Shown in pieces: positions 10,809 through 26,915 of a DNA stretch of 64,000 bases. How positions within the stretch are numbered: the first letter of the stretch is position 1; every line of letters starts with the position of its first letter. The notes under the pieces are model-generated. The model did no database searches and was not told the DNA's origin. It saw only the letters and a list, made by a program, of their open reading frames with translations. Source of the stretch: Gammaproteobacteria bacterium (GTDB lineage: Bacteria; Pseudomonadota; Gammaproteobacteria; Poriferisulfidales; Poriferisulfidaceae); contig JAPONY010000055.1 in assembly GCA_026713705.1 (NCBI GenBank), positions 3,227 through 67,226 of the forward strand, written 5' to 3'. The position numbers were made by a program, and so were the translations under genes.

Positions 10809-11132
10809 TCAGTCGCTGAGTTTGCGTTCCTGCAGATCGATGTCACGCTGCTGCTCGCCAACGTGTCCGGCCAGGTAGAGGGCGATGGTGAGTGCCGCGG
10901 CCGTACCGACCGCCATGGACTGCTGCCAGATCGAGGGCCCGCCGCTCAGAAGCCGAAGAAGCCATAGCAGGCTCAGGTATGCCAGATAGAAAAACCAGAA
11001 TGCGACGGGCACCAGCGCAGGGTAAGGTGGATCATTGAACTGGATCAGGTACAGAGCCGCCAGCGCCACCCCCACGGCCAGCAGGATTACCTGGGACAGA
11101 TAATTCGAAATGAGGGTGCGAATGCGGGACAT
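10809..11132 (-). CDS. Small hypothetical membrane protein (3 predicted TM helices)
   Basis: Hydrophobic segments. Its stop lies 2 nt before the cysS start, so it is likely co-transcribed. Confidence 0.4.
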   Translation of the reverse strand: MSRIRTLISNYLSQVILLAVGVALAALYLIQFNDPPYPALVPVAFWFFYLAYLSLLWLLRLLSGGPSIWQQSMAVGTAAALTIALYLAGHVGEQQRDIDLQERKLSD

Positions 11133-11287
11133 CAGGTCAGAAGGGAGCCACCTGTCGAAAGGACAATTTTAGAACAGAGCGCATCGGCGTCTCTCGCCGG
11201 TTCTTCGATCCAAGACCGAATCGCTGAGCAAACCGGGAGCGGACATGAGATAAAATGGCGTTCCTCACAAGGAGTAGGTAGCACTCA

Positions 11288-11479
11288 ATGGATCAAATCT
11301 ATCGAGACGCGGTCACCCGCATGGAAGAACTGGGCGTCGATCCCGAGTACATTCTCGGCTGGCAGGGCGGTTATCTAGGCCACCCGACGCGAGAGGAGCA
11401 ACGCCTCACCGAGGCCTATCAGGCCGGATTTGAGGACGGTCAGGAAAAGGAAACCGGTAATTTCGAGAACTGGGCGTAA
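11288..11479 (+). CDS. Hypothetical small protein (63 aa)
   Basis: A good SD (AAGGAG) lies 10 nt upstream of the ATG. No recognisable family. Confidence 0.35.
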   Translation: MDQIYRDAVTRMEELGVDPEYILGWQGGYLGHPTREEQRLTEAYQAGFEDGQEKETGNFENWA

Positions 11480-11530
11480 TCGGGTCCATTAATCTCCATC
11501 TGGCCCATCGGCCTTTTGCAACAGGAAACG

Positions 11531-11548
11531 GGGCACTTCAAAGTGCCG
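11531..11548. terminator. Possible bidirectional hairpin between convergent genes
   Basis: GGCAC-ttcaaa-GTGCC inverted repeat between the 3' ends of 11288..11479(+) and 11551..12111(-). Short stem and weak U-tract. Confidence 0.2.
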
Positions 11549-11550
11549 AG

Positions 11551-12111
11551 TTACGCTCTGCCTGAAACCAGGCTTCGGAGGGTTCGCCGAAGCGCGGTTG
11601 CGAGCTTTGGTGCCTCGCGGTCGATGACATAGGTGGCGATCCATTCCTGATCCTTCTCTCCCATGCTGTCGGCCACCGCATCGCCGAGTTCCCGGCACAG
11701 AGCAAACCCTGGCCCTTCTCCCTCGGACCATTGACAGTCGGCATAGGCTTCGGTCTGCGCATTGAGTTGTTCGATGAAGCGGGCCGCGTGTTCTCCCGGG
11801 CCGTCGCATTCCAGCCGGTTGTCCTGCATCAGCGCGGCCAGGTGCTTGGCCAGCGAGGGGATCAGCAGGCCTCGCTCTTCGTCGGACAGCCGTGATTGGG
11901 TTTCGCGGTCGACCAGATGCACGCCGAAGACCGCGAATTGCCCGATCACGTCCAGTCGCTGCGACCAGTCGGCGGTTTCGAATCCTTCGTTCTCGAGCGC
12001 CAGCAGGGCATCGCTGGCGAGCCGCCAGATATTGACGGACAGGGCGCTGGCCGTCTGGCTCGCGCTGCGCGGCGTTTCACGCAGGTTCCAGTGTCGGGAA
12101 AGACGGGGCAT
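11551..12111 (-). CDS. Hypothetical protein
   Basis: 186 aa ORF with coding-like composition. No family recognised. Confidence 0.4.
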   Translation of the reverse strand: MPRLSRHWNLRETPRSASQTASALSVNIWRLASDALLALENEGFETADWSQRLDVIGQFAVFGVHLVDRETQSRLSDEERGLLIPSLAKHLAALMQDNRLECDGPGEHAARFIEQLNAQTEAYADCQWSEGEGPGFALCRELGDAVADSMGEKDQEWIATYVIDREAPKLATALRRTLRSLVSGRA

Positions 12112-12200
12112 GGTGGGACTCCGGTCGCGATGCTAACACGCTTTGCCTTGACGATTTTGCGTTTTTCGCCACTATAGTTAGTAGGAATCATCTTATTCTG

Positions 12201-13253
12201 TTGCCGAGACTGGAAATGCCGCCGATCGAACCCTTGTGTGAGCGCGTTCAGGCCAACTGCGACATCGCCGATGCCCGTCATGCGGGTGCCCTGACCATGT
12301 GCGTGTACCTGCTGAAGATGCGCGAATACTTCCGTTGGGAGATGGGCCTGGATTTCACGGCACGCCTGCCGAACGACGCGGTAGGGCGCTGGATCCAGGA
12401 ACGGGAGGAGCGTTGGGAGGAATTGGGCGAGGAATCTTACCGCCCGGTGTCGATCCGGGGGCGGGAATACGACCCGTTCGATACCGAGGGCATCAATGAA
12501 GCGCTGTTGCCGGAGGGCTACGTGTACAGCGCGGGGCTGGGCCTGCACAAGGTGCCGCACTTTTTCCTGGGCCGGTTGCTGGGCGAGCAGGGTCAAGGAG
12601 GCTATCGGATCTATGAGGCCCGGGAAGAGTGCGCACGGGATCTGGCCGCGCCGCCCGCGATGACTCTGGGCCAGACCATCTTCGTGCGTCGGGAGTCCTT
12701 GCGCCGCATGCTGTGGGAGCGCTTGCAGGAATGGCGTTGGAACCGGCAGGAAAACGCATTGGGCGAGGCTTTGCGCTGTTATCCGTTCGACGAGGACCTG
12801 GAATCGGCGCTTGATGCGATGACGGAATGCGAAGCGCGGACTCTGATCCTGCATGAAATCGGCGAGATCGAGGTCGGCCGGGAGTTGGGAGAGGACTGGC
12901 ACGAACTGTTGCATGCCCTGCCCCGCGGGATGGCGGAATTGGGCCTGCGCGCGGTGCGCGACCACTGGGCCGATTGCCAGGTGACATTGCCGGCCTTGCT
13001 GGAAGACGGCAATCGTGCGGCACTGCTGTTCTATCGAGCCGGCCTGACGGCCATGCGCCGGCAGTTGTTCCCGGAGTTGGTGGAAGCGTTTGACTGCTGG
13101 CGGGACGAGCATGATGAAGGCGTCCTGCTGAAAACGGTCGATCGGGGCCGTGCTCACTGGGGAGAAACCGCGAAACAACTGCTGCATGCCGGCAGCCGGA
13201 GCCGGACCCCTGCGAAAAAGTTGACGAGCATTCTGGAAGCGGCGGCGCTGTGA
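12201..13253 (+). CDS. Hypothetical protein (first gene of operon leading into fad genes)
   Basis: 350 aa. Its stop overlaps the start of the next gene (ATGA). No recognisable motifs. Confidence 0.45.
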   Translation: MPRLEMPPIEPLCERVQANCDIADARHAGALTMCVYLLKMREYFRWEMGLDFTARLPNDAVGRWIQEREERWEELGEESYRPVSIRGREYDPFDTEGINEALLPEGYVYSAGLGLHKVPHFFLGRLLGEQGQGGYRIYEAREECARDLAAPPAMTLGQTIFVRRESLRRMLWERLQEWRWNRQENALGEALRCYPFDEDLESALDAMTECEARTLILHEIGEIEVGRELGEDWHELLHALPRGMAELGLRAVRDHWADCQVTLPALLEDGNRAALLFYRAGLTAMRRQLFPELVEAFDCWRDEHDEGVLLKTVDRGRAHWGETAKQLLHAGSRSRTPAKKLTSILEAAAL

Positions 13254-13834
13254 GCGCGTCTCCGTCCGAGCTGCGCGAAGTTCTTCCCGGAAGTTTCATC
13301 TGGCAGCAGGACGGCGTCCTGGCGCCGGAGCAGTGCCAGGCCGTCATCGAGCGCTTCGAGGCGCATCCGGGCAAGGTGTCCGGACGCACGGGCGCCGACG
13401 CGAGCGAGCGGCCTGAACTCAAGCAATCGACCGACCTGGCTCTGGTCGGGCCGGAGTGGGAGGATGTTGATCGCTGGCTGTTTTCCTCCCTGTCCGCCGC
13501 GTTGCGGGAACTGCAGCGTCACCACCCGTATTTTCGCGGGCGGTTCAAGGATCAGGGATATGCGGTGCAGCGCACCGACGAGGGCGAGTACTATCACTGG
13601 CATGTGGATGCGGACAGTACGGCCTTGGCGGATCGGCAGTTGGTGGCAATCTGGTATCTCAACGACGTGGGGGGGCCGGGCGGGGAGACCGAATTCCTGC
13701 ACCAGGAAGTGAAGATCACGCCGGCGGCCGGTCGGCTGATCCTGTTCCCGCCGTTCTGGACCCATCAGCACCGAGGCGTCACCCTGCGCCAGGGCGTCAA
13801 GTACCTGGCAACCACCTGGATTGTTTTCGCTTAA
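13250..13834 (+). CDS. 2OG-Fe(II) oxygenase superfamily protein (prolyl-4-hydroxylase-like)
   Basis: HxD...H facial triad candidates (HWHVDAD and THQHRG) and an RxS-like 2OG-binding region (GVTLRQGVKY). 194 aa. Confidence 0.6.
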   Translation: MSASPSELREVLPGSFIWQQDGVLAPEQCQAVIERFEAHPGKVSGRTGADASERPELKQSTDLALVGPEWEDVDRWLFSSLSAALRELQRHHPYFRGRFKDQGYAVQRTDEGEYYHWHVDADSTALADRQLVAIWYLNDVGGPGGETEFLHQEVKITPAAGRLILFPPFWTHQHRGVTLRQGVKYLATTWIVFA

Positions 13835-13869
13835 GATGGGGTGGGGCGCGCCGACTAGAATAGTCGAGT

Positions 13870-14859
13870 ATGCGCTTGACTTCTTATCTACGTCTTCCAG
13901 ACCCGGCAATTTGGCGGCGGGTCGCGGGGCGTTGGTTGCACCGGGGCCGGATTTATGTGGCTCGTGCGCTCGAATTCTGGCGGTGGGCGGTGGAGTGGCT
14001 GGAGCGCCGGGCCATCGTCTGGCTGCTGGTCGAGAAGAGGAAAGGGGAGATCTTGTCGCCGATCAACTTCGAACACCTTCTGGCCGAGGTCCGCATGGGC
14101 GATGTGCTGTTGGTCGAAGGACGTACCCGGGTGTCGCACGCGGTGCGAAACATCACGAAGAGCGTGTGGACGCATTCGGCACTGGTCATCGGCACCCTGG
14201 ACAAGATCCGGGACCCAGCCCTGCGCGCGGTTGCGCGCAGCTATCTCCAGGACGATGAGCTGGAGGACCCGCTGATCGTGGAGTCCGAGCTCGGCTGCGG
14301 CACGATCATTTCCTCGATCCTGCGCTACCGCGACCACCACCTTCGCCTGTGCCGGCCGCAGAGGTTGAGCTATGCGGATGCCCGCCGAGTCTCGACCTAC
14401 GCTCTGCTGCACCTGGGTGCCGGCTACAACGTCCGGCAGATCCTGGACCTCGCGCGTTTCCTGGTGCCTTGGTGGACGGTGGTCCCGCGCCGCTGGCATT
14501 CGTCCCTGTTCGAACACAACTACCGGGATCCCACCCGGCTGATCTGTTCGACGATGATCGCCAATGCGTTCAGCCGGGTCCGCTTCCCCGTGGTCCCGCT
14601 GGTCGTCCAGGACGAAGGACAATTCCGTATGCTGCAACGCAATCCGCGCCTGGTTACGCCGCGCGACTTCGATCACTCTCCGTACTTCTCGATCATCAAG
14701 TACCCGCTGCTCGGCGAGGACGACATCGGGTTCTACAAGAAATTGCCGTGGTCGGAGCAGGGCCTGGCCGAAGAGGCCCAGGACAGTCTGGAAGACTGCA
14801 GCATCATGCATGTCAAACTGAACCAGCCGGAACCCGAGGATAGCGAGGAGAAAGACTGA
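13870..14859 (+). CDS. YiiX/DUF830-like permuted papain-fold (NlpC/P60-like) putative lipid-directed hydrolase
   Basis: N-terminal GDVLLVEG...SHAVRNIT...THSALVIG resembles the YiiX family. A conserved Cys lies in LICSTMIANAF. The stop overlaps the fadE start. Confidence 0.45.
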   Translation: MRLTSYLRLPDPAIWRRVAGRWLHRGRIYVARALEFWRWAVEWLERRAIVWLLVEKRKGEILSPINFEHLLAEVRMGDVLLVEGRTRVSHAVRNITKSVWTHSALVIGTLDKIRDPALRAVARSYLQDDELEDPLIVESELGCGTIISSILRYRDHHLRLCRPQRLSYADARRVSTYALLHLGAGYNVRQILDLARFLVPWWTVVPRRWHSSLFEHNYRDPTRLICSTMIANAFSRVRFPVVPLVVQDEGQFRMLQRNPRLVTPRDFDHSPYFSIIKYPLLGEDDIGFYKKLPWSEQGLAEEAQDSLEDCSIMHVKLNQPEPEDSEEKD

Positions 14860-17348
14860 TGGGCGGTTTTCTGGGCGCACTCTTCTGCCAGCTGGCCGGG
14901 CTCGTCCTGCTGCTTGCGGGCTTGGCGTTGATCACGGTTCATGCGGCGAACTTCTGGGTCTGGGTGGCCGCGGCGGGGCTGGCGCTGCTGCTGTGGATGC
15001 TGACTTTCGCGCCGCCGTTCTGGTGGGCCTTCCTGGTGGTTGCGGCGTGGGCGGTGCCGGTGCTGATGTGGGTGCATTCGGGCTGGCGGCAATCCGTGAT
15101 CGTCCAGCCTGCCTGGCACCGGTTGCGCAAGGCATTGCCGCCCTTGTCCGATACCGAGCGCGAAGCGCTGCAGGCGGGGGCCGCGGGTTGGGAAGAGGCA
15201 TTGTTCACCGGATCGCCCGATTGGGACGGGATCCTGCGCGGGAAGCCTGCGGAACTCACCGAGACGGAGCAGGAGTTTCTTGAAGGTCCGGTCGAGCGCC
15301 TGTGCGCATTGCTGGACGACTGGCGCATCACGACGGCCGACTACGACCTGCCGCCGGAAGCCTGGCAGCTGATCCGGGAGGAGAAGTTTTTCGGCATGGT
15401 CTTGCCGGAACAATACGGCGGCCTGGGATTTTCGGCGCTCGCCCACTCCGAAGTGGTCATGAAGATCGCCAGCCGCAGCGTCACCGCGGCGGTCACGGTC
15501 ATGGTGCCCAACTCGCTCGGCCCGGGCAAGTTGCTGCTGCGCTATGGCACGCAGGAGCAGAAGGACCACTACCTGCCTAGGCTTGCGCGAGGGGAAGAGA
15601 CGCCCTGTTTCGGCTTGACCGGGCCGCATGCCGGATCGGATGCGGCCTCCCTGCAGGATAGCGGCGTGGTCTGCCAATGGGAGGAGGACGGCGAAAGCGT
15701 CCTGGGCATCCGACTCAACTGGGAGAAGCGCTACATCACTCTGGCGCCGGTGGCGACGCTGATCGGTCTGGCCTTCCGCCTGTACGACCCGGACGGCCTT
15801 CTGGGCGGTGCGCGGGATCTGGGAATCACGCTGGCACTGATCCCGGCGGACACGCCGGGGGTTGAAGCCGGACAACGGCACATGCCCCTGCAAGTCCCGT
15901 TCATGAACGGGCCGGTTCTGGGACGCAACGTGCGGATTCCCATGGACCAGGTCATCGGCGGGCGCGAGGGTGCCGGACGTGGTTGGCAGATGCTGATGGA
16001 ATGCCTGGGCGAGGGGCGGGGCATTTCGCTTCCCGCCTTGGCGGTGGCCGCCGGCAAGACGGCGACCCGCCGCACAGGGGCCTATGCCGCCGTCCGGCGC
16101 CAATTCTCGTTGCCGATCGCCCGGTTCGAGGGGGTCGAGGAAGTGCTTGGCGGGATCGGCGGGAACACGTACCTGATGGATGCCGTGCGAACCGAGATCG
16201 CGCGTCAGGAAGATTGCGACGAATGTTCTTCCGTAGCATCGGCGATCGCCAAGCAGCAGCTGACCGAGCGCATGCGCCAGGTCGTCAATGGAGCCATGGA
16301 TATCAATGCCGGCGCGGGAATCTGCATGGGCCCCCGCAACCAAGTGGCCCGCCTGTACCAGGCGGTGCCGATTGCGATCACGGTGGAAGGCGCCAACCTG
16401 CTGACCCGCAACATGATAATTTTCGGGCAGGGACTGGTGCGTTGCCACCCCTACCTGCTGCAGGAGATGGAGTGCCTGCAGATGGAGGAAGAGGGCGAGG
16501 CACTGGAACGGTTCGACCTGATCTTGGGTCGGCATGCAGGCACTACTTTCCGCAGCGTCAGCCGCGCGTTCGTGCTGGGCCTCAGCGGCGGGCGTTATCC
16601 TCTATCGGACCTGCCTCCGGCGCCATACCGGGCCTTGGCCTGGCAGAGTGCTTGCTTTGCCTGGGTGGTTGACGTGCTGCTGCTGCGCTACGGGGGAGTG
16701 CTCAAACGCCGAGAACGCCTGTCGGCGCGCTTGGCGGACATGTTTTCGGCCCAGTACATGGCGGTATGCGTGATTCGCCGGTTTCAAGCGCGGGGCGGCC
16801 GCGCGGAAGAGGTCCCTTTGCGCGACTGGGCCCTGATGGAATGCCGACAGCACTTCATTACGGCGCTGGACGGACTGATCCGCAATCTGGACAACATCTG
16901 GCTGCGTGCTTTGCTGCGTGCCTCCACCCTCCCGCTGGGGCGCCTGGGCCAGTTCCGGGCCGACAAGGGGGACAGCGCCGTGGCTCGTTTGATCACGACG
17001 CCGGGTGAGGAACGCGACCGCTTGTGCGAAGGGATTTATTTGGGCGAAGACCCTGACGATCCCTCTGTCCGGCTGGAGCGAGGCCTGATCGAGGCGGAAA
17101 AGTTGGAGCCGGTCCGGCGCGCATTGCGCCGTGCGGTGCAGGAGGGGAAAGTCACGGTGGGTGAAGAGGGCGTCGACCTGGATCAAGCGGTAGAGGTTGG
17201 AGTCATGACCTCGGAACAGGCGGAGCAGTTGCGCGAAGCCGACCGCCGGGTGGACGAGATCATCGCGGTCGACGCATTTGCGCCGGAGGATTGGGCGCGC
17301 GCTGTACCCATTCTGCCGAGCGACCCGCCGGATCGTGCAGCGCAATGA
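14859..17348 (+). CDS. fadE: Acyl-CoA dehydrogenase, FadE type (large, N-terminal membrane anchor)
   Basis: 829 aa. N-terminal TM helices, then an ACAD fold (MVLPEQYGGLGFS, FGLTGPHAGSDAASL, catalytic region) and a DUF1974-like C-terminus, matching E. coli FadE architecture. Confidence 0.8.
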   Translation: MGGFLGALFCQLAGLVLLLAGLALITVHAANFWVWVAAAGLALLLWMLTFAPPFWWAFLVVAAWAVPVLMWVHSGWRQSVIVQPAWHRLRKALPPLSDTEREALQAGAAGWEEALFTGSPDWDGILRGKPAELTETEQEFLEGPVERLCALLDDWRITTADYDLPPEAWQLIREEKFFGMVLPEQYGGLGFSALAHSEVVMKIASRSVTAAVTVMVPNSLGPGKLLLRYGTQEQKDHYLPRLARGEETPCFGLTGPHAGSDAASLQDSGVVCQWEEDGESVLGIRLNWEKRYITLAPVATLIGLAFRLYDPDGLLGGARDLGITLALIPADTPGVEAGQRHMPLQVPFMNGPVLGRNVRIPMDQVIGGREGAGRGWQMLMECLGEGRGISLPALAVAAGKTATRRTGAYAAVRRQFSLPIARFEGVEEVLGGIGGNTYLMDAVRTEIARQEDCDECSSVASAIAKQQLTERMRQVVNGAMDINAGAGICMGPRNQVARLYQAVPIAITVEGANLLTRNMIIFGQGLVRCHPYLLQEMECLQMEEEGEALERFDLILGRHAGTTFRSVSRAFVLGLSGGRYPLSDLPPAPYRALAWQSACFAWVVDVLLLRYGGVLKRRERLSARLADMFSAQYMAVCVIRRFQARGGRAEEVPLRDWALMECRQHFITALDGLIRNLDNIWLRALLRASTLPLGRLGQFRADKGDSAVARLITTPGEERDRLCEGIYLGEDPDDPSVRLERGLIEAEKLEPVRRALRRAVQEGKVTVGEEGVDLDQAVEVGVMTSEQAEQLREADRRVDEIIAVDAFAPEDWARAVPILPSDPPDRAAQ

Positions 17349-17368
17349 ATTATCGGGCGATATGAGCC

Positions 17369-18670
17369 ATGCAACTGAGTTACGGGCGCACAGTCTACGT
17401 CGTTGATGGTCGGCGAACGCCGATCCTCAAGGCCTCCGGTTCTCCGGGGCCGTTCTCCGCGAGCGATCTGGCGGTAGCCTGCAGCCGGGATCTTCTTATG
17501 CGGCACCCGAAGGCCCGGGAGAACATACAGGAGGTGGTCTGGGGCTGCGTGATGCCCAGCGAGTCCGAAGCCAATATCTCCCGAATCATCGGCCTTCGCC
17601 TGGGGCTCGGCCTCGGCGTGCCCGCCCACACGGTCCAGCGCAACTGCGCATCCGGAATGCAGGCGCTGGATGCGGCGGCGCATCGCATCGCACAGGGTGC
17701 CGCGGACCTGGTTCTCGCCGGAGGGGTCGAGGCGATGAGCCGTGCACCTGTCCTCTTCGGGCCGGACGCCGTGGCTTGGCTTGGGGGTTTCAGCCGGGCG
17801 AGGGGCCGGTGGGCCCGGTTGCGCATGCTGGCGAAGCTAAGGCCCCGGATGTTGCATCCGGTCATCGCCCTCAAGTGCGGCCTGACCGATCCGGTGGTGA
17901 ACCTCAACATGGGCCAGACTGCGGAGGAACTGGCCTATCGTTTCCAGATTTCCCGCCGGGCCATGGACACTTTTGCGCTGGAAAGCCACGAACTTGCCGC
18001 ACGGGCGCAGGATGCGGGGGTTTTCGACGATGAAATAACACCTCTCTACGAGGGGGTGACCGGCAAAATCTATGCTCAGGACAACGGGGTGCGCCGCGAT
18101 TCTTCCCTGGAGCAACTGGGCCGGTTGCGCCCGGCGTTCGACCGTCCGAGCGGCAACGTGACGGCCGGAAACAGTGCGCAGATCAGCGATGGCGCGGCCG
18201 CGTTATTGCTGGCTTCGGGCGAGGCGGTCGAGCAATATGATTTGCCGATCCTCGGCATTCTGCATCACATTAGCTGGGCGGCGCTGGATCCGGCGGTGAT
18301 GGGGCTGGGCCCAGTGCACGCGATGCGGGATCTGTTCGACCGGACCGAAGTCGCGGTTCCCGAAATCGACTGCTTCGAGATCAACGAGGCGTTTGCGGTG
18401 CAGGTCCTGGCGTGTCTGCAAGCCTGGCAAGACGAAACTTACATGCATGAGGTACTGGGCCGGGGCGGTTGTCTCGCGCCGATCGACAAGGAACGGCTCA
18501 ATCCGCACGGGGGCGCAGTGGCCATCGGCCATCCGGTGGGCATGACCGGGGCGCGGATCGTGTTGCACGTGCTCAAGCAGCTGCAGCGCATGAAAGGACG
18601 GTTCGGAGTCGCGAGCCTGTGCATCGGCGGAGGGCAGGGCGGCGCGGCATTGCTGGAGCGCGTGTCATGA
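17369..18670 (+). CDS. fadI: 3-ketoacyl-CoA thiolase (FadI/FadA type)
   Basis: Thiolase motifs: NCASGMQAL (active Cys), GNSAQISDGAAA, CIGGGQGGA. 433 aa, typical FadI size. Confidence 0.8.
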   Translation: MQLSYGRTVYVVDGRRTPILKASGSPGPFSASDLAVACSRDLLMRHPKARENIQEVVWGCVMPSESEANISRIIGLRLGLGLGVPAHTVQRNCASGMQALDAAAHRIAQGAADLVLAGGVEAMSRAPVLFGPDAVAWLGGFSRARGRWARLRMLAKLRPRMLHPVIALKCGLTDPVVNLNMGQTAEELAYRFQISRRAMDTFALESHELAARAQDAGVFDDEITPLYEGVTGKIYAQDNGVRRDSSLEQLGRLRPAFDRPSGNVTAGNSAQISDGAAALLLASGEAVEQYDLPILGILHHISWAALDPAVMGLGPVHAMRDLFDRTEVAVPEIDCFEINEAFAVQVLACLQAWQDETYMHEVLGRGGCLAPIDKERLNPHGGAVAIGHPVGMTGARIVLHVLKQLQRMKGRFGVASLCIGGGQGGAALLERVS

Positions 18671-20691
18671 GCGATTGGCGGCACTGGCGGCTTACGGCGG
18701 GCGAGGGAGGGAACCTGGAGTTGTTCCTGGCGGTGGACGACCGCTCGGTCAATGTGTTGCACAGCGGGGTGCTGGACGAACTGGAGGATGTGCTGGAGCG
18801 CCTGTACACCGAGAGCCCTCCGGGCGTCATTCTCGGCTCGGATCCGGAACGCGCGTTCGCGATGGGTGCGGACGTGACCGAATTCGCGAAACTGGAAAAC
18901 CGAGACCAAGCCTTGGCGATGCTGCACCGAGGGCAGAAACTGTTCGAGGACTGGGCGAATCTGGAGTGTCCGACCGTTGCTGCAATCCGAGGGCACTGCC
19001 TGGGCGGGGGGCTGGAACTGGCGCTGGCTTGCGACTACCGGATCGTGGAGAGCGAACCGCAGGTCCAGATCGGGTTGCCCGAGGTGCGGCTCGGCATCCA
19101 CCCGGGATATGGGGGGTCCGTGAGATTGCCGGCCTTGGTCGGTGACCTGAAGGCATTGCGGATGATGGTCACCGGCAAAACCGTGTCCGGCGCGGCGGCG
19201 ATGAAGTTGCGGTTGGTGGATGCGATGGTGCCGCGGCGACAATTGTATGCGGCAGCGCGAGAGATGATCCGGCGTCGCCCCGCCCCGCACCGCCCGTCAT
19301 GGCGCGACCGGTTGCCCCACGTGCCGGCGTTGCGCGGCGCGGTGACATGGGCCTATGCCCGTGGTATGAAATCGGTCGCTCCGGAGGAACATTTCCCGGC
19401 GCCGTACCGTCTGCTCAAGCACTGGCAGGATTTGAGCAAGGATTCCTCTGAGGCGCTCGAGTCTGAAGCACAATCGGTGGCAAACCTTTTCGAATCGCCG
19501 CAGGCGCGCCAGATGACCCGGATATTCCTGCTCCGCCAGGAACTCAAGAGCCATGCCTCCAACGGCAAGAAGACCTCCAGCGTGCATGTCGTCGGGGCCG
19601 GCGTGATGGGAGGTGACATTGCTACTTGGTGTGCCCTGAACAGGCTGCGGGTGACGTTGCAGGATACGGACCCGGAACGGATCGCTCCGGTGATCCGACG
19701 TGCCCGCCGGATGCTCGACCGTCGTCCGGAAGACACGCAAGCCACGCTGGACCGTCTGATTCCAGATCCGGAGGGGCATGGTGCCAAATCAGCAGACCTC
19801 GTGATCGAGGCGATTCCCGAGAACCTTGAGGCGAAGCAGGAACTGTACCGCCAACTGCAATCCCGGATGCGTTCGGACGCCTTGCTCGCGACCAACACGT
19901 CGAGCCTTCCTCTCGAAGGGCTCGCGGAGGTCCTGGACGATCCCACCCGGCTGGTCGGCATTCATTTCTTCAACCCGGTATCCAAGATGCCGCTGGTGGA
20001 GGTCATCTACCATGACTCCGAGCAGCAGCCCTTGATCAACCAGGCCGCCGGGTTTGTCCGGCACATCCGGCGAGTGCCGCTGGTGGTGAAATCCTCACCG
20101 GGTTTCCTGGTCAACCGGGTGCTCATGCCCTACCTTCTGGAGGCGGTTCGCCTCCGGGAAGAGGGGATGTCGGTGGCCACCATCGATCGGGCGGCGACGG
20201 AGTTCGGCATGCCCATGGGTCCGCTGAAGCTGGCAGACATGGTGGGGCTGGATGTCTGCCTTGCCGCCGGTTCAGTCCTTGCCGGGGCCCATGGGGCGGA
20301 GATTCCCGGCTCTTTGGCCGAGGCGGTCGAAGCCGGCAACCTGGGGCGCAAGACCGGCCGGGGCTTTTACCACTGGAAGAACGGAGAGGCGAAACGCCTG
20401 CACGGCAGAAAGCCGTCGCAGGATTGCGGGGACCGGCTCGTCCTCAGCATGGTGCGCGAAGCGGTGCATTGTCTGCATGAAGGCCTGGTGGAGCGTGCGG
20501 ACTGGATTGATGCGGGGCTGATTCTGGGGACCGGCTTTGCTCCTTTCACCGGCGGGCCGTTGGAACTGGTGCGTCGAAGGGGCACGGATGCAGTCTGTCG
20601 CCGCTTGGAAGCGCTCGAGAAACGTTATGGGCCGAGGTTCGCCCCTGGACCGGGTTGGGACTCGGAGCACCTGCGCAAGACGGCTCCATGA
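18667..20691 (+). CDS. fadJ: Fatty acid oxidation complex alpha subunit (enoyl-CoA hydratase / 3-hydroxyacyl-CoA dehydrogenase)
   Basis: N-terminal crotonase fold (GHCLGGGLELALACDYRI), then NAD-binding VVGAGVMGGDIA and 3HCDH domains. Start taken at the ATG overlapping the thiolase stop (ATGA); the track ORF from 18469 overlaps the thiolase and is not credible. Confidence 0.8.
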   Translation: MSDWRHWRLTAGEGGNLELFLAVDDRSVNVLHSGVLDELEDVLERLYTESPPGVILGSDPERAFAMGADVTEFAKLENRDQALAMLHRGQKLFEDWANLECPTVAAIRGHCLGGGLELALACDYRIVESEPQVQIGLPEVRLGIHPGYGGSVRLPALVGDLKALRMMVTGKTVSGAAAMKLRLVDAMVPRRQLYAAAREMIRRRPAPHRPSWRDRLPHVPALRGAVTWAYARGMKSVAPEEHFPAPYRLLKHWQDLSKDSSEALESEAQSVANLFESPQARQMTRIFLLRQELKSHASNGKKTSSVHVVGAGVMGGDIATWCALNRLRVTLQDTDPERIAPVIRRARRMLDRRPEDTQATLDRLIPDPEGHGAKSADLVIEAIPENLEAKQELYRQLQSRMRSDALLATNTSSLPLEGLAEVLDDPTRLVGIHFFNPVSKMPLVEVIYHDSEQQPLINQAAGFVRHIRRVPLVVKSSPGFLVNRVLMPYLLEAVRLREEGMSVATIDRAATEFGMPMGPLKLADMVGLDVCLAAGSVLAGAHGAEIPGSLAEAVEAGNLGRKTGRGFYHWKNGEAKRLHGRKPSQDCGDRLVLSMVREAVHCLHEGLVERADWIDAGLILGTGFAPFTGGPLELVRRRGTDAVCRRLEALEKRYGPRFAPGPGWDSEHLRKTAP

Positions 20692-22376
20692 GCATTCTGG
20701 AACGGATTTCGCACGACCACACTCTGGGGCAGTTGTTCGAAGAGCGAGTCGCGGCCACGCCGGACGCGGTGGCCTACATCGAATACAGCCACGTGCTGGG
20801 GAAATGGTTCAACCACAGTTGGGAGTCGGTCCATCAACAGGCTGGCCGTGCCCAGTTTCTGCTCAAGGGATTGGGCCTTGGGCCCGGCGATCGGATCGGC
20901 ATCATGGCGCATGGCGGGACTTACTGGGTCACCCTGGATGTGGCTGCGGCGGGTCTCGGAATCGTGACCGTCCCGCTTTACCACCGGGATCGAGGGGGCA
21001 ATGTTGCCTACGTGGCCGAACGCAGTCGCATGCGTGCCCTGTTCATCGGTGGACATGCCCAATGGGAGGCCATCGGGGATGAGCGCGGTCGGATGCCCGG
21101 TGTCAAGCACATCTTCAGCGCGGTCCAGATACCAGACACGGAAGTCCAACCGTTTTTGCTGGAACTTTCTTCCGCGCAGCCATCGCCGTACCAAGTGATG
21201 CAGAAAGACCCCGCTTCCATTGCGACCATCGTGTTCACTTCGGGCACCACCGGTCGGCCCAAGGGGGTACAACTAACTCATGGCAACATTTTGAGCAACG
21301 CCATAGCGGCGACTGCCGCAGTTCCAGTCGGGCCGGAGGATCGACTGTTGTCTTTCCTGCCGCTGTCGCATATGTTCGAGCGGACGGTGGGCTACTACTC
21401 GCCCATGCTGCGGGGTTCTACGGTGGCATTCGCCCGTTCCATTGCCACTTTGCGCGAGGATCTTCGCCTGCAGCCGCCCACCGTCATGGTGTCGGTGCCG
21501 CGCGTCTACGAAAAAATCTATCGTGCCATGACTTCAAGGCGGCCGCTGAACAGTCCGGTCGGACGGTTGCTGGTGTCCCTGAGCCGCAAGGCAGGTCGTG
21601 CGGGTCCCTCCCCTTTATGGCGAGTCCTGGGCCTGTTGCCGCGCCGCTTGATCGGGCGGAAGGTCCTGCAGGGATTGGGTGGAAATTTGCGCATCGCCAT
21701 CACCGGCGGTGCGGCGATGAATTCCAGGGTGGCGGATTTCTTCGCCGGCATCGGGCTGAAGGTAGTGCAGGGCTATGGCTTGACGGAGACCTCTCCGGTG
21801 GTCAGCGTCAACCGGGAAGCAGATATCCGGCGTGGTTCGGTCGGCCCGCCGATCGAAGGGGTGGAAGTGCGGCTGGCCGAAGACCAGGAACTGCTGGTGA
21901 GGGGGAGAGGGATCATGCAGGGTTACTTGGAGGACCCGGAAGCAACCCAGGCAGCCATTGACCCTGAAGGGTGGTTCCATACGGGTGACCTGGCCCGCAT
22001 TGAGGAAGACCATATCTACATCATCGGGCGGGCGAAGGAAATCATCGTGCTGTCCAACGGGGAGAAAGTCCCGCCGGAGGATCTGGAAAGCGCCCTGTGC
22101 AACGACCCCCGAATCAGTCAGGCTTGGGTCGCAGGAGAAGGGCGGCCATTCCTGTCGGCGGTGGTCGTGGTCGAGGAGCCAGTGGACGAGGGTCAGCTGC
22201 TAGATTCGATCGACAGCCTGCTGCACGATTTTCCTGGATATGCGCACATCAGGCGCCTGCATGTCGAAACCGAGCCATGGACCGAACAGAATGGTTTCCT
22301 TACAGCGACGCTGAAGTTGCGCCGCCGCGCCCTTCACGAGAAATACGACGAGATTGTTTCCGCGTTTTACGGCTAG
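20688..22376 (+). CDS. fadD: Long-chain fatty acid--CoA ligase (AMP-binding, FadD-like)
   Basis: AMP-binding motif TSGTTGRPKGVQLTHGNI, motif GYGLTETSP, and a C-terminal domain. Start chosen at the ATG overlapping the fadJ stop. Confidence 0.75.
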   Translation: MSILERISHDHTLGQLFEERVAATPDAVAYIEYSHVLGKWFNHSWESVHQQAGRAQFLLKGLGLGPGDRIGIMAHGGTYWVTLDVAAAGLGIVTVPLYHRDRGGNVAYVAERSRMRALFIGGHAQWEAIGDERGRMPGVKHIFSAVQIPDTEVQPFLLELSSAQPSPYQVMQKDPASIATIVFTSGTTGRPKGVQLTHGNILSNAIAATAAVPVGPEDRLLSFLPLSHMFERTVGYYSPMLRGSTVAFARSIATLREDLRLQPPTVMVSVPRVYEKIYRAMTSRRPLNSPVGRLLVSLSRKAGRAGPSPLWRVLGLLPRRLIGRKVLQGLGGNLRIAITGGAAMNSRVADFFAGIGLKVVQGYGLTETSPVVSVNREADIRRGSVGPPIEGVEVRLAEDQELLVRGRGIMQGYLEDPEATQAAIDPEGWFHTGDLARIEEDHIYIIGRAKEIIVLSNGEKVPPEDLESALCNDPRISQAWVAGEGRPFLSAVVVVEEPVDEGQLLDSIDSLLHDFPGYAHIRRLHVETEPWTEQNGFLTATLKLRRRALHEKYDEIVSAFYG

Positions 22377-22403
22377 GCTCGCGCTTTCAGTTCGGGCTTG
22401 AGT

Positions 22404-24344
22404 CTATTCGAATTCCTCGGGCGCCCAGCGCCAGCCCATTTCCGGAAGGGTCTCGACCACCTCGAAGGGTTGCACATGCCGGAAGCTCCGGCCGTAGCGA
22501 TCAACGGTGGTGACCTCAAGCACATGCGGGCCGATCGGCAGGGACTTTGGCAGGTCGGCGCGCCACAGATGACTGGATTTCCGGGTCAGCATCCAGGGTT
22601 TGAACGGGCCGGGCGCGCCTTCCCAGGCGCCCCCCCGCCACGTTGTAAAACCGGCGGTCGCGTCTTTCCCTTCCTCGCTCCGAACCGCCAGGCGGGCGTT
22701 AGTCGATTGTTTGGCCAGGGCGAGCGGATCAGCATATTCGGGACCCTCAAGCCATCCCTCTCCCTCGCCCGGCTGGGTTCTTGCGGCTTGGATCGCTTCT
22801 CCGCCGTCGATAGATACGGAACCCCGGCTCTCCTTCGAGCCGTTCCAGACATTGACCGCGACCCAGCTGCCGCCTTCGAGGTCATCGAGCGTCAGCATGT
22901 TCATGTCGCCGAGGTCCGCGACCGTGACCGGCGGGAGAGTGTCGGCCGGAATCTCGTGGGTGTCGGCATAAAAGAACAAGGTCTCGGCCCACCGACGGAA
23001 ACGCGGCGTGTTGAAGGAAGCATGCATCTGATCTTCCTCCGTGCCGCCGAAGGCCACGTAGGTGTCGGTATAGGCGGTTCCGTCGAAGTCGATCACGTAG
23101 TAGCCGCGCGGCGCGCCCAGGCGCTGGGTCGCGTGCGGGATACCTTGATCGTTGAGGTCGCCTGCCCACCAGGAACCGGCGACGCTGCCAGTGACGATCT
23201 GGTGGAACGGGGCCGGGCCGACCCCCGTGATTTCCTGCCAGCCGTGGAAGTGCTCGCCCGGCATGATCTGCTCGGTGGTGTGGGTATGGCCGAACAATCC
23301 CAGACTCGGGCGGTCGCCGATGATCGCGTAGAGGTCGGCCAGATTGTCGACCTGACGCTTCTGCGTTGTCGCGTCCGCATAGCTGGCGAACGGGATATGT
23401 GCATTTACGACCAAAAGCTTGTCCTCGGGCACATGAGCCAGATCGTTGCGCAGCCAGTCGAGCTGGCGCCCGTGAATCACGCCGTTGTAGGCGGGTTCTC
23501 CCGCAGGGTCGCAGAAGGCATGGTCATCGACCCCGTTGCACGGGTATCGCACATCGTCCAGGACGACGAAATGGACCTGGCCTATGTCGAAAGAATAGTA
23601 CTCGGGTCCCCATTCGCGTCTGAAAGTGTCGAAGGAATGGGCATCGTCCGGGGCGTCGAAATCGAGATCGTGATTGCCGGCGACATAGTATTGGGGCACA
23701 CCGCCGGCCGAGACGATCTTCTTGAAACGCCCGTAAAGGGACAGGTCATCGCCGACGATGTCCCCCTCGAAGATCAGGCATTCGGTGGAATCGTGATTAC
23801 GATTGACGAGCATCTTGCCGACGGTGTCCCGGACATAGGAGACTTCCCGGTTTGTATAGGGCTGGGTGTCGCCGAACACCAGGCACCGGAATCGATCGCC
23901 GACCGGATCCCTGATCAGCGGGAAGTTGATTGCCTGGGGGAGGGGACCGGTCGGGTCGATTCCTCCGAAACGCAGGTCGGGCGAGCCTGCGACCTTATGG
24001 AGGTAGTTGAACTGAGGGACCAGATCCGCATCGACGGGTGTGGCATAGCCGGCGGGCTTGGTGATAAAAAGGTTCATGTCGTCATAGACCGGCAGCGTGT
24101 AGGCGCCGGCTGCGTCGGTCACGACGACCTCTCGGCCGTTGGAGACCATGACGCCCGCGATTCCGGCTTCGCCTGCGTCAAGCTCCGAGTTGCGGTTGGC
24201 GTCCAAGAACACGGTGCCGCGTGCGGCATCTGCAGGGGCACCGCGCACAACATGAACCGAGCCAATGTAGCTCGGGTCTTTCGCGTAAGATCCGGTTGCA
24301 GCCAAGGCCAGAATTGCGGCGAGGGTGAAAGCGGGGTGAGGCAT
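22404..24344 (-). CDS. Secreted calcineurin-like metallophosphoesterase with N-terminal Ig-like/carboxypeptidase-regulatory-like domain
   Basis: Signal peptide (MPHPAFTLAAILALAATGSYA). Metallophosphatase motifs GDTQ, GDIVGDD, GNHD, GHTH. 646 aa. Confidence 0.7.
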   Translation of the reverse strand: MPHPAFTLAAILALAATGSYAKDPSYIGSVHVVRGAPADAARGTVFLDANRNSELDAGEAGIAGVMVSNGREVVVTDAAGAYTLPVYDDMNLFITKPAGYATPVDADLVPQFNYLHKVAGSPDLRFGGIDPTGPLPQAINFPLIRDPVGDRFRCLVFGDTQPYTNREVSYVRDTVGKMLVNRNHDSTECLIFEGDIVGDDLSLYGRFKKIVSAGGVPQYYVAGNHDLDFDAPDDAHSFDTFRREWGPEYYSFDIGQVHFVVLDDVRYPCNGVDDHAFCDPAGEPAYNGVIHGRQLDWLRNDLAHVPEDKLLVVNAHIPFASYADATTQKRQVDNLADLYAIIGDRPSLGLFGHTHTTEQIMPGEHFHGWQEITGVGPAPFHQIVTGSVAGSWWAGDLNDQGIPHATQRLGAPRGYYVIDFDGTAYTDTYVAFGGTEEDQMHASFNTPRFRRWAETLFFYADTHEIPADTLPPVTVADLGDMNMLTLDDLEGGSWVAVNVWNGSKESRGSVSIDGGEAIQAARTQPGEGEGWLEGPEYADPLALAKQSTNARLAVRSEEGKDATAGFTTWRGGAWEGAPGPFKPWMLTRKSSHLWRADLPKSLPIGPHVLEVTTVDRYGRSFRHVQPFEVVETLPEMGWRWAPEEFE

Positions 24345-24384
24345 GAGTCGGTCTCCAGTGCACTCAATTGGAGGAAAATGTCAA

Positions 24385-24408
24385 TTAAGACAAGTCAACT
24401 TGTCTTAA
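24385..24408. promoter_or_regulatory. Perfect 24-bp palindrome in AT-rich promoter region of the metallophosphoesterase gene
   Basis: TTAAGACAAGT-CA-ACTTGTCTTAA, 11-bp arms. It lies 40 nt upstream of the start codon on the minus strand, in a ~130 bp AT-rich island. Confidence 0.4.
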
Positions 24409-24487
24409 CGGCAAAAATCGATGAAATTTATGCTATTTCAAATAGATATATACGCAAGATAATTCAGGAGAAGCGGAATTACCAATT

Positions 24488-24853
24488 TTACGGTTGAGCC
24501 CCGCGCTCGATCCGGGTCTGCGTCATGTCTCCATCGGTGTCGATCACGACCTCCCGGACATCGGGGGTCCGTGCCACGATGTAGGCGGCCATCATCGTGG
24601 CCAGTTCCTGATTTTGGTTTTCCATGGCTGTCAGCAGCCGGTCGGCGACGATCTGGCAGCGCTGGAGAGTGTCCGGATGATCTACCCAGACCCGGGACAT
24701 TTGCCAGCCCTGGTTCATGTCGGCATCCATGCGGGCGAACATATCGGCGGCTTCTTCGGGCATGCCGTCCGGAATCCGGATCGGATAGGCGTGTTCGTTG
24801 ATGGTGACGTTCAGAATCATGTCATCGGCCGGGAGGCCGTGCCATCCTAACAT
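24488..24853 (-). CDS. Hypothetical protein
   Basis: Coding-like ORF. The track start at 24877 is TTG; the ATG at 24853 or 24820 (MILNVTINEH...) is more plausible. No family recognised. Confidence 0.35.
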   Translation of the reverse strand: MLGWHGLPADDMILNVTINEHAYPIRIPDGMPEEAADMFARMDADMNQGWQMSRVWVDHPDTLQRCQIVADRLLTAMENQNQELATMMAAYIVARTPDVREVVIDTDGDMTQTRIERGAQP

Positions 24854-24947
24854 TCCTCGTGCGTACCTCTGATGCAATCGGGGTTAAAATAGAAAGTTCC
24901 ACAAGTGATAACTGTTACAGGCTTCCAGCTTCTCTGAAAATCCCTTC

Positions 24948-26915
24948 ATGCCGCGCCGCAGATCCTCACGGCGATCCACTCGTCAGTCTACTTCTTCCAA
25001 GCCGGTCCACGGGCGCCTCTCCGCGCACCGCGACGGCTACGGCTTCGTGACGCCGGACAGCGGAGGGGAAGACATCTTCCTGCCTCAGGCGCAGATGCAT
25101 ACTGCCATGCATGGCGATTACATTTCGGTCTGGCCGGGGGTGCCCGGCCGGCAGGGGAAGGTCAGCGGGATGTTCCATGAGATCCTGGAACGCAGCCACG
25201 AGACCGTAGTCGGGCGGTTTAAGGCGGCAGGCGAGCGCAAGGCGATGATCATCCCGGAGGATCCTCGGATCCAGCATGCCTTCGAAGCTGCAAAACATGC
25301 CAGTGCGAAGGCTGGGGACCTGGTGGTGGCCGACATCACGGACTTTCCGCAGCAGGGGTATCCCGGCAAGGCCCAGGTCAACCGCGTACTCGGCACCGCC
25401 GAGCAGAACACTGACATCGATTTCGCCATTGTTTCGTTCAGCCTGCCGAACACCTGGTCGCGCCGGGTTCGGGAGGAATTGCCCGGCCTGTCCGAACTTG
25501 AGGACGAGTTGCCGCGGCGAGACCTGACGGACCTACCATTCGTGACCATCGACGGCGCGGATGCGAAGGATTTCGACGATGCCGTCTGTGCGCGAGAGAA
25601 TAAGTCTGGCTGGACTTTGTGGGTGGCGATCGCGGATGTTGCGCACTACATCCGCCCAGGCAGTACGCTGGATGCCGAGGCGCGCAAGCGTGGCACTTCA
25701 GTCTATTTTCCGAACCGGGTCATCCCGATGCTTCCGCCGGATCTGTCGGAAGATCTGTGTTCCCTGCGTCCGGATGTGGAACGCAAGACGTTGGTCTGCG
25801 AGATGGAACTCGGCCCTCGCGGGGCACTGCAGTCGTTCCAGTTCTATCCGGCACAGATCCGCTCAAAGGCTCGGCTGACCTATTCGGCGGTGGAGCAGGC
25901 CGTATTTCAGAGCCAGCCCGATGCACGCGGGCGCCTTGAACAACATCTGCCCGCACTGGAGAAGCTCGTTACCCTGTACCGGCTCCTTCACGCCCGGCGC
26001 TTGCATCGTGGGGCACTGGATTTCAACAGCACCGAATGCCGCTTCAAATTCGATGGTCAGGGACAGGTCAAGGGCATTCGCCCCGTCATCCGGCTCGAAG
26101 CCCACCGGCTGATCGAGGAGTGCATGATTCTGGCCAATGTCGCGGCAGCCGAGCAACTGGATCGACACAAACAGCACGGACTGTATCGCATCCACGACCA
26201 GCCCCAGCAGGAGAAAATCGACACCCTGCGCGCCTTGGTAGCAGGTCTCGGTCTCAAGTTCCCGTTCAAAGATCCTGTCACTCCGAGCGATTGCGCCGAC
26301 CTGCTTGAGCAAGTTCAAGATACCGAACACCAGGCGCTGGTCGAGCGCGCCCTGCTGCGCTGTCAGAGCCTGTCTGTCTATTCGCCCGACAATATCGGGC
26401 ATTTCGGCTTGGCCCTGGAGCGCTACGCGCACTTCACTTCGCCCATCCGTCGCTATCCGGATCTTGCAGTACACCGGGCCATCCGCCATACGTTGAAAGG
26501 GGGCAAGCGGTTTGGCCCTGCACCGTCCCATGGCGAGATGACCGTTCTTGGAGAACACTGCTCCATGACGGAGCGGCGGGCTGATGAAGCCGTATGGGAT
26601 GTCGAGGGGGCCTACAAGTGCCGGCTTGCGGAAAAACACCTCGGGGAGCATTTCAGCGGAACCGTCACCACGGTGACGCAGTTCGGGCTGTTCGTGGAAC
26701 TGGACGGCTTATATACGGACGGTTTGCTCCACGTCAAGCAGATGGGGAGAGACTACTATCACTACGACCCTGACTCGCAGCAGTTGAGAGGGGAACGTAA
26801 CGGCGAGACCTGGCAGGCCGGCGACCGCATCGAAGTGACCCTCCAGGAGGTCAGCCTGCGGGAGCGCAGGATTGTGCTGGTGCCGCATGCCGGCCACCGT
26901 CGGGGCCGGGCGTGA
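24948..26915 (+). CDS. rnr: Ribonuclease R (RNB-family 3'-5' exoribonuclease), apparently lacking the N-terminal HTH region
   Basis: Cold-shock domain (HRDGYGFV), RNB catalytic domain (FVTIDGADAKDFDDAV, HFGLALERYAHFTSPIRRYPD) and a C-terminal S1 domain. It is followed by rlmB, as in E. coli. Confidence 0.85.
   Translation: MPRRRSSRRSTRQSTSSKPVHGRLSAHRDGYGFVTPDSGGEDIFLPQAQMHTAMHGDYISVWPGVPGRQGKVSGMFHEILERSHETVVGRFKAAGERKAMIIPEDPRIQHAFEAAKHASAKAGDLVVADITDFPQQGYPGKAQVNRVLGTAEQNTDIDFAIVSFSLPNTWSRRVREELPGLSELEDELPRRDLTDLPFVTIDGADAKDFDDAVCARENKSGWTLWVAIADVAHYIRPGSTLDAEARKRGTSVYFPNRVIPMLPPDLSEDLCSLRPDVERKTLVCEMELGPRGALQSFQFYPAQIRSKARLTYSAVEQAVFQSQPDARGRLEQHLPALEKLVTLYRLLHARRLHRGALDFNSTECRFKFDGQGQVKGIRPVIRLEAHRLIEECMILANVAAAEQLDRHKQHGLYRIHDQPQQEKIDTLRALVAGLGLKFPFKDPVTPSDCADLLEQVQDTEHQALVERALLRCQSLSVYSPDNIGHFGLALERYAHFTSPIRRYPDLAVHRAIRHTLKGGKRFGPAPSHGEMTVLGEHCSMTERRADEAVWDVEGAYKCRLAEKHLGEHFSGTVTTVTQFGLFVELDGLYTDGLLHVKQMGRDYYHYDPDSQQLRGERNGETWQAGDRIEVTLQEVSLRERRIVLVPHAGHRRGRA

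Follow-up and report, generated by a model that had tools for sequence, protein, structure and literature searches.

A YiiX-like hydrolase heads a conserved beta-oxidation operon that adjoins a separate DUF6866/oxygenase module in Candidatus Porisulfidus

Positions 12201-22376 on the plus strand of a 64-kb stretch of contig JAPONY010000055.1 (the whole stretch is referred to here as the window) carry seven co-directional genes, which we call g1 to g7. An interpretation made earlier from the letters alone, hereafter the sequence-only reading, had assigned all of them to one operon dedicated to the breakdown of a modified or conjugated lipid. We compared the region with related loci and find it likely that two independently conserved modules lie side by side here, an arrangement found in Candidatus (Ca.) Porisulfidus and one other lineage. 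Module A consists of g1, a DUF6866-family gene, g2, a gene for a 2-oxoglutarate (2OG)-Fe(II) oxygenase, and the divergent gene up186. Module B comprises g3 to g7, a beta-oxidation (fad) operon that begins with the gene of a YiiX-like hydrolase. The region is thus a variant of a familiar operon type plus an unrelated module. The coupling of the hydrolase to the fad genes is real and conserved, and it is without description in the literature that we retrieved.

About 160 related loci were used in all. A g1-seeded scan of a genome collection, with the window proteins compared by tblastn, yielded a g1-centered set of 80 loci. Among these, one locus on a Ca. Porisulfidus chromosome is 99% identical, roughly a dozen more genomes belong to Porisulfidus, and ~65 loci are of other gammaproteobacterial or, in a few cases, betaproteobacterial origin. 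The g3-centered set consisted of 80 metagenome loci, and its denominators count the loci with enough sequence. Ca. Porisulfidus is a sponge-associated sulfur-oxidizing gammaproteobacterium with a reduced genome (chromosomes about 1.6-2.0 Mb). The literature that we found on it was limited to genome notes, and none turned up on beta-oxidation in sponge sulfur-oxidizing symbionts.

In the g3-centered set, g3 was followed by a FadE-type gene in 56/58 loci, and then by a thiolase gene (38/40), a FadJ-like gene (33/35) and, after the latter, a ligase gene (20/29). The order g3-FadE-thiolase-FadJ(-ligase) was kept despite unrelated flanks. The five-gene unit lies behind GGDEF/EAL signaling genes in one locus (L082) and behind a SufS-like aminotransferase gene near uvrC in another (L083). 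In a third (L081) the unit from g3 to the ligase gene stands between a GNAT gene and the small conserved gene c4, followed by a PKHD gene, which corresponds to its slot in the window. Because this order persists across differing flanks, we conclude that g3-g7 (13870-22376) form a single conserved beta-oxidation operon with the YiiX-like hydrolase as its leader gene, a conclusion that is well supported. The coupling of the hydrolase to beta-oxidation genes, as proposed in the sequence-only reading, was thereby borne out in several unrelated contexts. The same cannot be said of the other two upstream genes, since g1 and g2 were located upstream of g3 in only 4/48 g3-centered loci.

The four enzymes behind the hydrolase were assigned with Pfam and NCBIfam models. 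g4 matched the domains Acyl-CoA_dh_N, Acyl-CoA_dh_M, Acyl-CoA_dh_1 and ACDH_C, and scored 966.9 bits against PRK09463 (cut-off 600) and 842 against the 'exception' model of Escherichia coli FadE (cut-off 1300). Kyte-Doolittle windows predict transmembrane segments within its residues 1-75. g5 matched Thiolase_N, Thiolase_C and the PRK08170 model (NF006030; 614.5, cut-off 593), and missed the FadI equivalog (319.6 vs 560). g6 carries ECH_1, 3HCDH_N and 3HCDH and missed the FadJ equivalog (479.5 vs 869). g7 carries AMP-binding and AMP-binding_C_3, resembles FadD11 and long-chain ligases below the equivalog cut-offs, and missed the FadD equivalog (120 vs 884). The earlier designation of a fadE-fadI-fadJ-fadD set was therefore right in its families, and g4 is of the FadE type by PRK09463, while fadI, fadJ and fadD can be used only as family names, since no NCBIfam equivalog cut-off for them was reached. 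Compared to the fad genes of E. coli and Pseudomonas (fadE, fadIJ or fadBA, fadD), g4-g7 provide the same four activities with the same domain architectures. The window differs in that all four genes belong to one operon with the YiiX-like hydrolase gene leading, in that g5, g6 and g7 fall under the respective cut-offs, and in its PRK08170-type thiolase.

Further genes recurred at the margins of the operon in other genomes. A 4HBT-family acyl-CoA thioesterase of 131 amino acids is encoded after the ligase gene in L082 (17828-18223) and in 11 other loci, and is absent from the window. Directly upstream of g3 and on the same strand, 44/84 loci encode a 376-amino-acid class-V aminotransferase/SufS-like protein (e.g., L083, 8700-9830). 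This protein scored below all NCBIfam cut-offs, and its loci span several FadE clades.

A family profile built from 25 homologues of g3 matched the structure of Bacillus cereus BcPPNE (PDB 3kw0; E 3e-4) across the GD...His and Cys segments. D78 of the GD motif, H102 and C226 were invariant in permuted order in these 25 sequences, and many homologues carry a precomputed match to PF05708 (Peptidase_C92, YaeF/YiiX). The same permuted order, with GD and His ahead of Cys, is found in the PF05708 enzymes E. coli YiiX (2IF6) and BcPPNE. The g3 subfamily differs from the PF05708 model by a C-terminal extension and additional invariant segments outside the Pfam coverage, the latter including the blocks PRRWxSSLFEHN and TPRDFDYSPYF. 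No NCBIfam model matched g3, and neither a transmembrane segment nor a signal peptide was detected in it. We therefore assign g3, at family level, as a putatively cytoplasmic YiiX/YaeF-like circularly permuted NlpC/P60 cysteine hydrolase, in agreement with the permuted-papain fold that had been proposed for it. With E<=1e-30 as the limit, the subfamily contains 283 representative clusters. Gammaproteobacterial metagenome-assembled genomes often carry homologues that are about 45-55% identical, and some of these homologues are annotated as 'YiiX/YebB-like NlpC/P60 family cysteine hydrolase'.

The PF05708 family has a link to lipids: YiiX of E. coli crystallized with a fatty acid in its hydrophobic S1 pocket, and a role as lipid amidase (lipid-amide hydrolase) was proposed (PMC3142127). 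Among other permuted NlpC/P60 enzymes, Tox-Act1 is a phospholipase (PMC12994826) and LnsA of Staphylococcus aureus has a role in lipoprotein N-acylation (PMC7387801). Like the g3 class, LRAT/HRASLS (PLAAT), Tox-Act1 and LnsA act on fatty-acyl esters or amides through a Cys/His-based acyl-thioester. However, they are phospholipases or acyltransferases directed at membranes, toxin targets or lipoproteins, whereas g3 appears to be a cytoplasmic protein of housekeeping type that is encoded within a catabolic operon. At the sequence level, no match of g3 to LRAT/HRASLS, Tox-Act1 or LnsA was obtained. The functions of bacterial YaeF/YiiX-type permuted NlpC/P60 enzymes were still described as poorly understood in a 2020 paper, and no description of a YiiX-fadE operon was found in the retrieved YiiX/YaeF literature or under YiiX combined with acyl-CoA dehydrogenase.

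The picture is reversed when the region is viewed from g1. Outside Porisulfidus, g1 was accompanied by up186 in 58/62 loci and by g2 in 48/55, but g3 followed in only 1/47 and FadE in 1/43. Within the g1-centered set the full order g1-g7 was confined to Porisulfidus and one other locus (L031). The usual downstream order outside Porisulfidus is instead g2, GNAT, c4, a PKHD-type 2OG hydroxylase, a DsrC-like, a Cas6-like and a TauD-like protein, dsrAB and dsrEFH. In Thiocapsa marina (L077) g2 has shifted to the up186 side and is still within the module. Since g1 and g2 keep up186 and not the fad genes across relatives, we conclude that up186, g1 and g2 are a separate conserved module, typical of dsr-type sulfur-oxidizing Gammaproteobacteria. 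Its position beside dsr genes is an observation only and no evidence of a role. The proposal that the unknown protein and the oxygenase act in the same lipid route as the fad enzymes was not upheld by these neighborhoods; of the three genes upstream of fadE, g3 alone is conserved together with the fad genes.

g1 matched DUF6866_N and DUF6866_C in Pfam (205.8 and 204.1 bits) and NF045620 in NCBIfam (436 bits, cut-off 150). The protein that had been called unknown, with a length of 350 amino acids, thus belongs to the DUF6866/Sfum_1244 family and probably has 345 residues. We predict a metal-binding, helical/beta, enzyme-like protein. It has an invariant H213-E214-x-x-E217 followed by E241 (HExxE...E, X23), which echoes the iron motif of the DUF6421/PolE Fe/pterin oxidase (HE/DxxH-X21-23-E; PMC12614342), but the second His is Glu in g1. 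The zinc motif of dipeptidyl-peptidase III (DPP III, M49), composed of HExxGH and EExR(K)AE(D), is not matched by g1, and HExxGH is absent. The g1 sequence profile gave noise only against PDB, and Foldseek returned no PDB match at E<0.5. We regard the putative DPP III/PolE-like fold of g1, and its relation to metalloenzymes of these types, as a lead and not as a classification.

The assignment of g2 as a 2OG-Fe(II) oxygenase was confirmed by PF13640 (50.4 bits, cut-off 27) and by the HxD...H triad, HVD plus a downstream His, visible in the translation. Its closest PDB structures are those of the prolyl 4-hydroxylases (P4Hs) 5c5t (E 2e-6, 30.8 bits), 3itq and 5hv0, with the Bacillus anthracis P4H among the nearest. 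g2 shares PF13640 and the triad with bacterial and viral P4Hs at this low level of similarity, but it is paired with DUF6866 and up186 and not with a known P4H substrate. We found no literature on DUF6866/Sfum_1244, nor on dsrAB together with prolyl hydroxylase.

An invariable association of DUF6866 with a 2OG oxygenase was ruled out by Sulfuricella (L076), where g1 stands alone beside the cell-division genes mraZ, rsmH and ftsI. The GNAT gene had been considered as an N-acyl amino acid synthase and turned out to encode an ordinary small Acetyltransf_1/7/10 protein. The neighborhood of module A has odd features of its own: three Fe/2OG oxygenases and a Cas6-like gene stand beside dsr in free-living relatives, namely in L021 (11585-20978) and in ~30 other g1 loci (e.g., L014-L017, L026, L072). 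In those loci the DsrC-like protein is devoid of the usual C-terminal Cys pair, and the Cas6-family gene (PF09559) has no evident CRISPR context.

Module B occupies the slot between g2 (or GNAT) and c4 in Porisulfidus and one other lineage. c4 and the small open reading frame c25, which lies upstream of up186 in many loci, both belong to the g1-g2 synteny block of other Gammaproteobacteria; as c4 follows g2 or GNAT in other genomes, it marks the far edge of the slot into which the fad operon was inserted. In a neighbor-joining tree of g1 the fad-linked loci form two clades, Porisulfidus and a group of five loci (L031, L081, L086, L088 and L090), and a FadE neighbor-joining tree likewise keeps the two fad-linked lineages apart. 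The second clade has a GNAT gene and a gap of 127-180 nucleotides (nt) between g2 and g3. No repeats indicative of a mobile insertion were found on either side of the fad module, and the GC content is uniform across modules A and B, with no composition shift marking a recent transfer. Since the deep branches are short, one ancient insertion followed by losses and two insertions into the same slot are indistinguishable.

We next consider the junctions. All seven plus-strand open reading frames were confirmed, with family-level support for each in Pfam or NCBIfam, as the sequence-only reading had described apart from small coordinate errors; the start of g1 is probably the ATG at 12216, because its homologues have 345 amino acids. 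ATGA overlaps had been reported at four junctions. They are proper at 18667 (g5/g6) and 20688 (g6/g7), while the junction at 13250 reads GTGA, the GTG start of g2 overlapping the TGA stop of g1, and that at 14859 reads TGATG with an overlap of 1 nt (g3/g4). The spacers measure 35 nt between g2 and g3 and 20 nt between g4 and g5. The operon ends with g7.

In the spacer between up186 and g1, TTGACG and a block CACTATAG are conserved in L004, L005 and L006 while their flanks vary, and TTGACG-N19-TATAGT is a candidate promoter of g1. It was not listed by the promoter scan because its 19-nt spacer exceeds the 16-18 nt rule. The g2-g3 spacer is conserved in Porisulfidus and contains the palindrome CGACTAGAATAGTCG, of which the '-10-like' element GACTAGAAT is part. 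A motif of this type, G[ATG]CTA[ATG]A[CAT]T (GTCTATACT, GACTAAACT and variants), was present in 25/51 non-redundant upstream regions of g3, against a background of 0.013 per 150 nt. It has only three matches on both strands of the window, one of them at 13853-13861. These data are suggestive of a promoter in the g2-g3 spacer that the fad operon came with or retained. Between g2 and g3 neither a sigma-70 consensus nor a convincing terminator was found, but the spacer carries the conserved -10-like motif of g3. A hairpin at 13862-13881 was examined as a g2-g3 terminator and discarded as unconvincing, as it overlaps the g3 start codon and has no U-tract; the fold of this region has -24.8 kcal/mol (z = -1.7, 13/200 shuffles as good). 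Four g3 loci (L107, L108, L111, L112) share a conserved AAACAAAGCGTCCnATTTG block with a CAAA...TTTG dyad just upstream of the GTCTATACT element, about -75 to -30 from the g3 ATG, and this block might be an operator for a fatty-acid-responsive repressor.

Several observations weigh against two separate modules with a YiiX-like leader gene. The motif pattern was set post hoc, so that its evidence is suggestive only, and in the window the motif lies only 9 nt before the annotated ATG of g3. The scan (16-18 nt spacer rule) detected no sigma-70 consensus promoter in 11000-25500, no convincing terminator was found between g2 and g3, and the gap between these genes is 30-38 nt in most Porisulfidus genomes. 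Because of the short gap, the missing consensus and the missing terminator, co-transcription of all seven genes, or read-through from g1-g2 into g3, is possible within Porisulfidus. The repeat of the juxtaposition in the second g1 clade could reflect selection for linkage rather than chance. As to g3 itself, its match to PF05708 (E 2e-5, 25.2 bits) lies below the gathering score of 27, and the alignment spans only 99/166 model positions. Finally, one Porisulfidus locus (L010) is devoid of g3: fadE starts ~140 nt after g2 (11604-11747), and the genes from fadE through the ligase gene are intact. As this locus lost g3 and kept the fad genes, g3 is dispensable to the operon.

How far do these points favor a single dedicated pathway, in which g1 and g2 modify a conjugated or amide-linked lipid, for instance by hydroxylation, before g3 cleaves it and its acyl chain enters beta-oxidation? 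All seven genes point the same way and overlap or are at most 35 nt apart, the tight g2-g3 junction persists in Porisulfidus genomes of about 65-99% identity, the terminator signal is not significant, the adjacency occurs in the second clade as well, and enzymes of the g3 type were proposed as lipid amidases (PMC3142127). Nevertheless, 44/48 g3 loci have no g1 and g2 upstream, and about 98% of the g1-g2 loci outside Porisulfidus have no adjoining g3 or fad genes. g1-g2 keep up186, GNAT, c4 and the PKHD hydroxylase instead and adjoin dsr, and the relocated g2 of T. marina stays with module A. In the second clade GNAT and the wider gap split g2 from g3, and the upstream motif of g3 is retained in the spacer. 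We consider a seven-gene pathway quite improbable. A weaker link would be one of adaptive co-regulation alone: in Porisulfidus module B would stand behind the g1-g2 promoter for co-expression in the sponge host, with no shared chemistry. This fits the tight and conserved spacing in a reduced-genome symbiont lineage, the loss of the GNAT gene between the modules and the missing sigma-70 consensus. However, the g3-type upstream element was retained, and genome reduction alone shortens spacers, and we judge co-regulation to be a rather doubtful explanation, if a less strained one than the shared pathway.

With respect to the role of g3, we favor a release of fatty acids for beta-oxidation, although its substrate and the direction of its reaction are read from family membership and gene order. 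Cys226 and His102 would form an acyl-thioester and thereby free a fatty acid from a lipid conjugate, which could be an N-acyl amide, a lipoamino acid or a (lyso)phospholipid ester in the cytoplasm or at the inner leaflet. The g7 ligase would convert the freed fatty acid to acyl-CoA, and the membrane-anchored g4, followed by g6 and g5, would shorten it. In Porisulfidus module B may receive read-through from g1-g2, yet it keeps its own promoter-like element. The main rival for the role of g3 is an editing function: g3 would belong with the fad genes without supplying their substrate, as a thioesterase for acyl-CoA or acyl-enzyme, an (LRAT/LnsA-like) acyltransferase or a de-S-acylase that tunes or protects the pathway, such as by freeing stalled acyl groups or by passing acyl chains on to another acceptor. 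Permuted NlpC/P60 enzymes use an acyl-Cys intermediate and include known acyltransferases (LRAT, HRASLS, LnsA). g3 is predicted to be located in the cytoplasm, where acyl-CoA is an abundant acyl donor, the 4HBT thioesterase that often closes the operon makes thioester editing a theme there, and L010 dropped g3 and retained the fad genes. On the other side, g3 comes first in an operon that often has its own ligase, which fits the liberation of a free acid, a free fatty acid was bound by YiiX (PMC3142127), and no acceptor substrate is indicated by our data. Editing is therefore in our view unlikely, and the liberation of fatty acids is the preferred role.

A broader scenario joins three elements. 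A widespread gammaproteobacterial beta-oxidation operon may have in g3 a dedicated enzyme for its entry step, with a lipid conjugate as substrate (an N-acyl amino acid or lysophospholipid, for example). DUF6866 may represent a new type of metalloenzyme, marked by HExxE...E and a fold like that of DPP III/PolE, whose partners in dsr-type sulfur oxidizers would be the P4H-like oxygenase and a helical, Cbp3-like protein. In Porisulfidus both modules would have merged into one transcription unit, tying the use of host lipids to module A. Taken together we offer this combination tentatively and would not expect all of it to hold. If g3 does feed beta-oxidation, bacterial YaeF/YiiX-type permuted NlpC/P60 enzymes would have a testable physiological role, and an entry step for the catabolism of lipid conjugates would be common in marine and sediment Gammaproteobacteria, as judged by the 283 representative clusters. 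That a reduced genome encodes a complete route from lipid to acetyl-CoA suggests that the sponge symbiont uses lipids heterotrophically in addition to oxidizing sulfur. The trio of DUF6866, the P4H-like protein and up186 is a separate, widely conserved unit near dsr genes and merits its own study, whereas the claim of a dedicated seven-gene pathway is a poor basis for experiments.

Table 1. Features of the region and its surroundings (positions within the window; aa, amino acids).
Feature	Position	Strand	Description
c25	11285..11479	+	small conserved open reading frame, ~64 aa, start uncertain; tblastn match 11285-11473
up186	11551..12111	-	186 aa, all-alpha, divergent to g1; top conserved g1 neighbor
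candidate g1 promoter	12148..12178	+	TTGACG-N19-TATAGT, up186/g1 divergent spacer
g1	12216..13253	+	DUF6866/Sfum_1244-family, 345 aa from ATG 12216 (probable start); open reading frame listed as 12201-13253
g2	13250..13834	+	prolyl-4-hydroxylase-like 2OG-Fe(II) oxygenase, 194 aa, GTG start
'-10-like' element GACTAGAAT	13853..13861	+	within 35-nt g2-g3 spacer
g3	13870..14859	+	YiiX/YaeF-like circularly permuted NlpC/P60 cysteine hydrolase (family level), 329 aa
g4	14859..17348	+	FadE-type long acyl-CoA dehydrogenase, 829 aa
g5	17369..18670	+	thiolase, PRK08170 type, 433 aa
g6	18667..20691	+	bifunctional enoyl-CoA hydratase / 3-hydroxyacyl-CoA dehydrogenase, FadJ/FadB-like, 674 aa
g7	20688..22376	+	AMP-forming acyl-CoA ligase, 562 aa; final operon gene
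metallophosphoesterase	22404..24344	-	calcineurin-like, 646 aa, convergent; Pfam MetallophosN, Metallophos, MetallophosC
c4	24488..24877	-	small conserved protein, 108-129 aa; tblastn 83% identical to L002 c4

Neither c25 nor c4 matched a Pfam family, and c4 was without an NCBIfam match as well; Rfam gave no matches in the whole window. A plus-strand open reading frame of 699 amino acids (22398-24497) was considered as an eighth operon gene and rejected. It has no family match, and it is spurious because the opposite strand encodes the metallophosphoesterase there. The latter has a signal-peptide-like N-terminus, and its gene is wedged between g7 and c4. It was found in the 99.8%-identical locus L001 and is absent in L085, L002, L003, L004, L007 and L012, where g7 abuts c4. 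Since it is missing in close Porisulfidus relatives, we interpret it as a recent strain-specific insertion of 2.1 kb that lies outside the operon.

Insertions were also seen on the other side of the cluster. A ParD/ParE type II toxin-antitoxin pair (PF03693, PF05016) lies in the up186/g1 spacer of L002 (9422-9977) and also of L003 and L007, and some genomes of Porisulfidus have 350-700 nt between the two genes as a result. At a distance of ~5 kb upstream of the cluster, the minus strand of the window encodes a fusion of a major facilitator superfamily (MFS) transporter with an AMP-binding domain (1092 amino acids, 5583-8858), which is conserved in Porisulfidus loci. The fusion resembles LplT-Aas, an acyl-[ACP]--phospholipid O-acyltransferase (958 bits against PRK06814, short of its cut-off of 1349), and is of the lysophospholipid uptake and re-acylation type.

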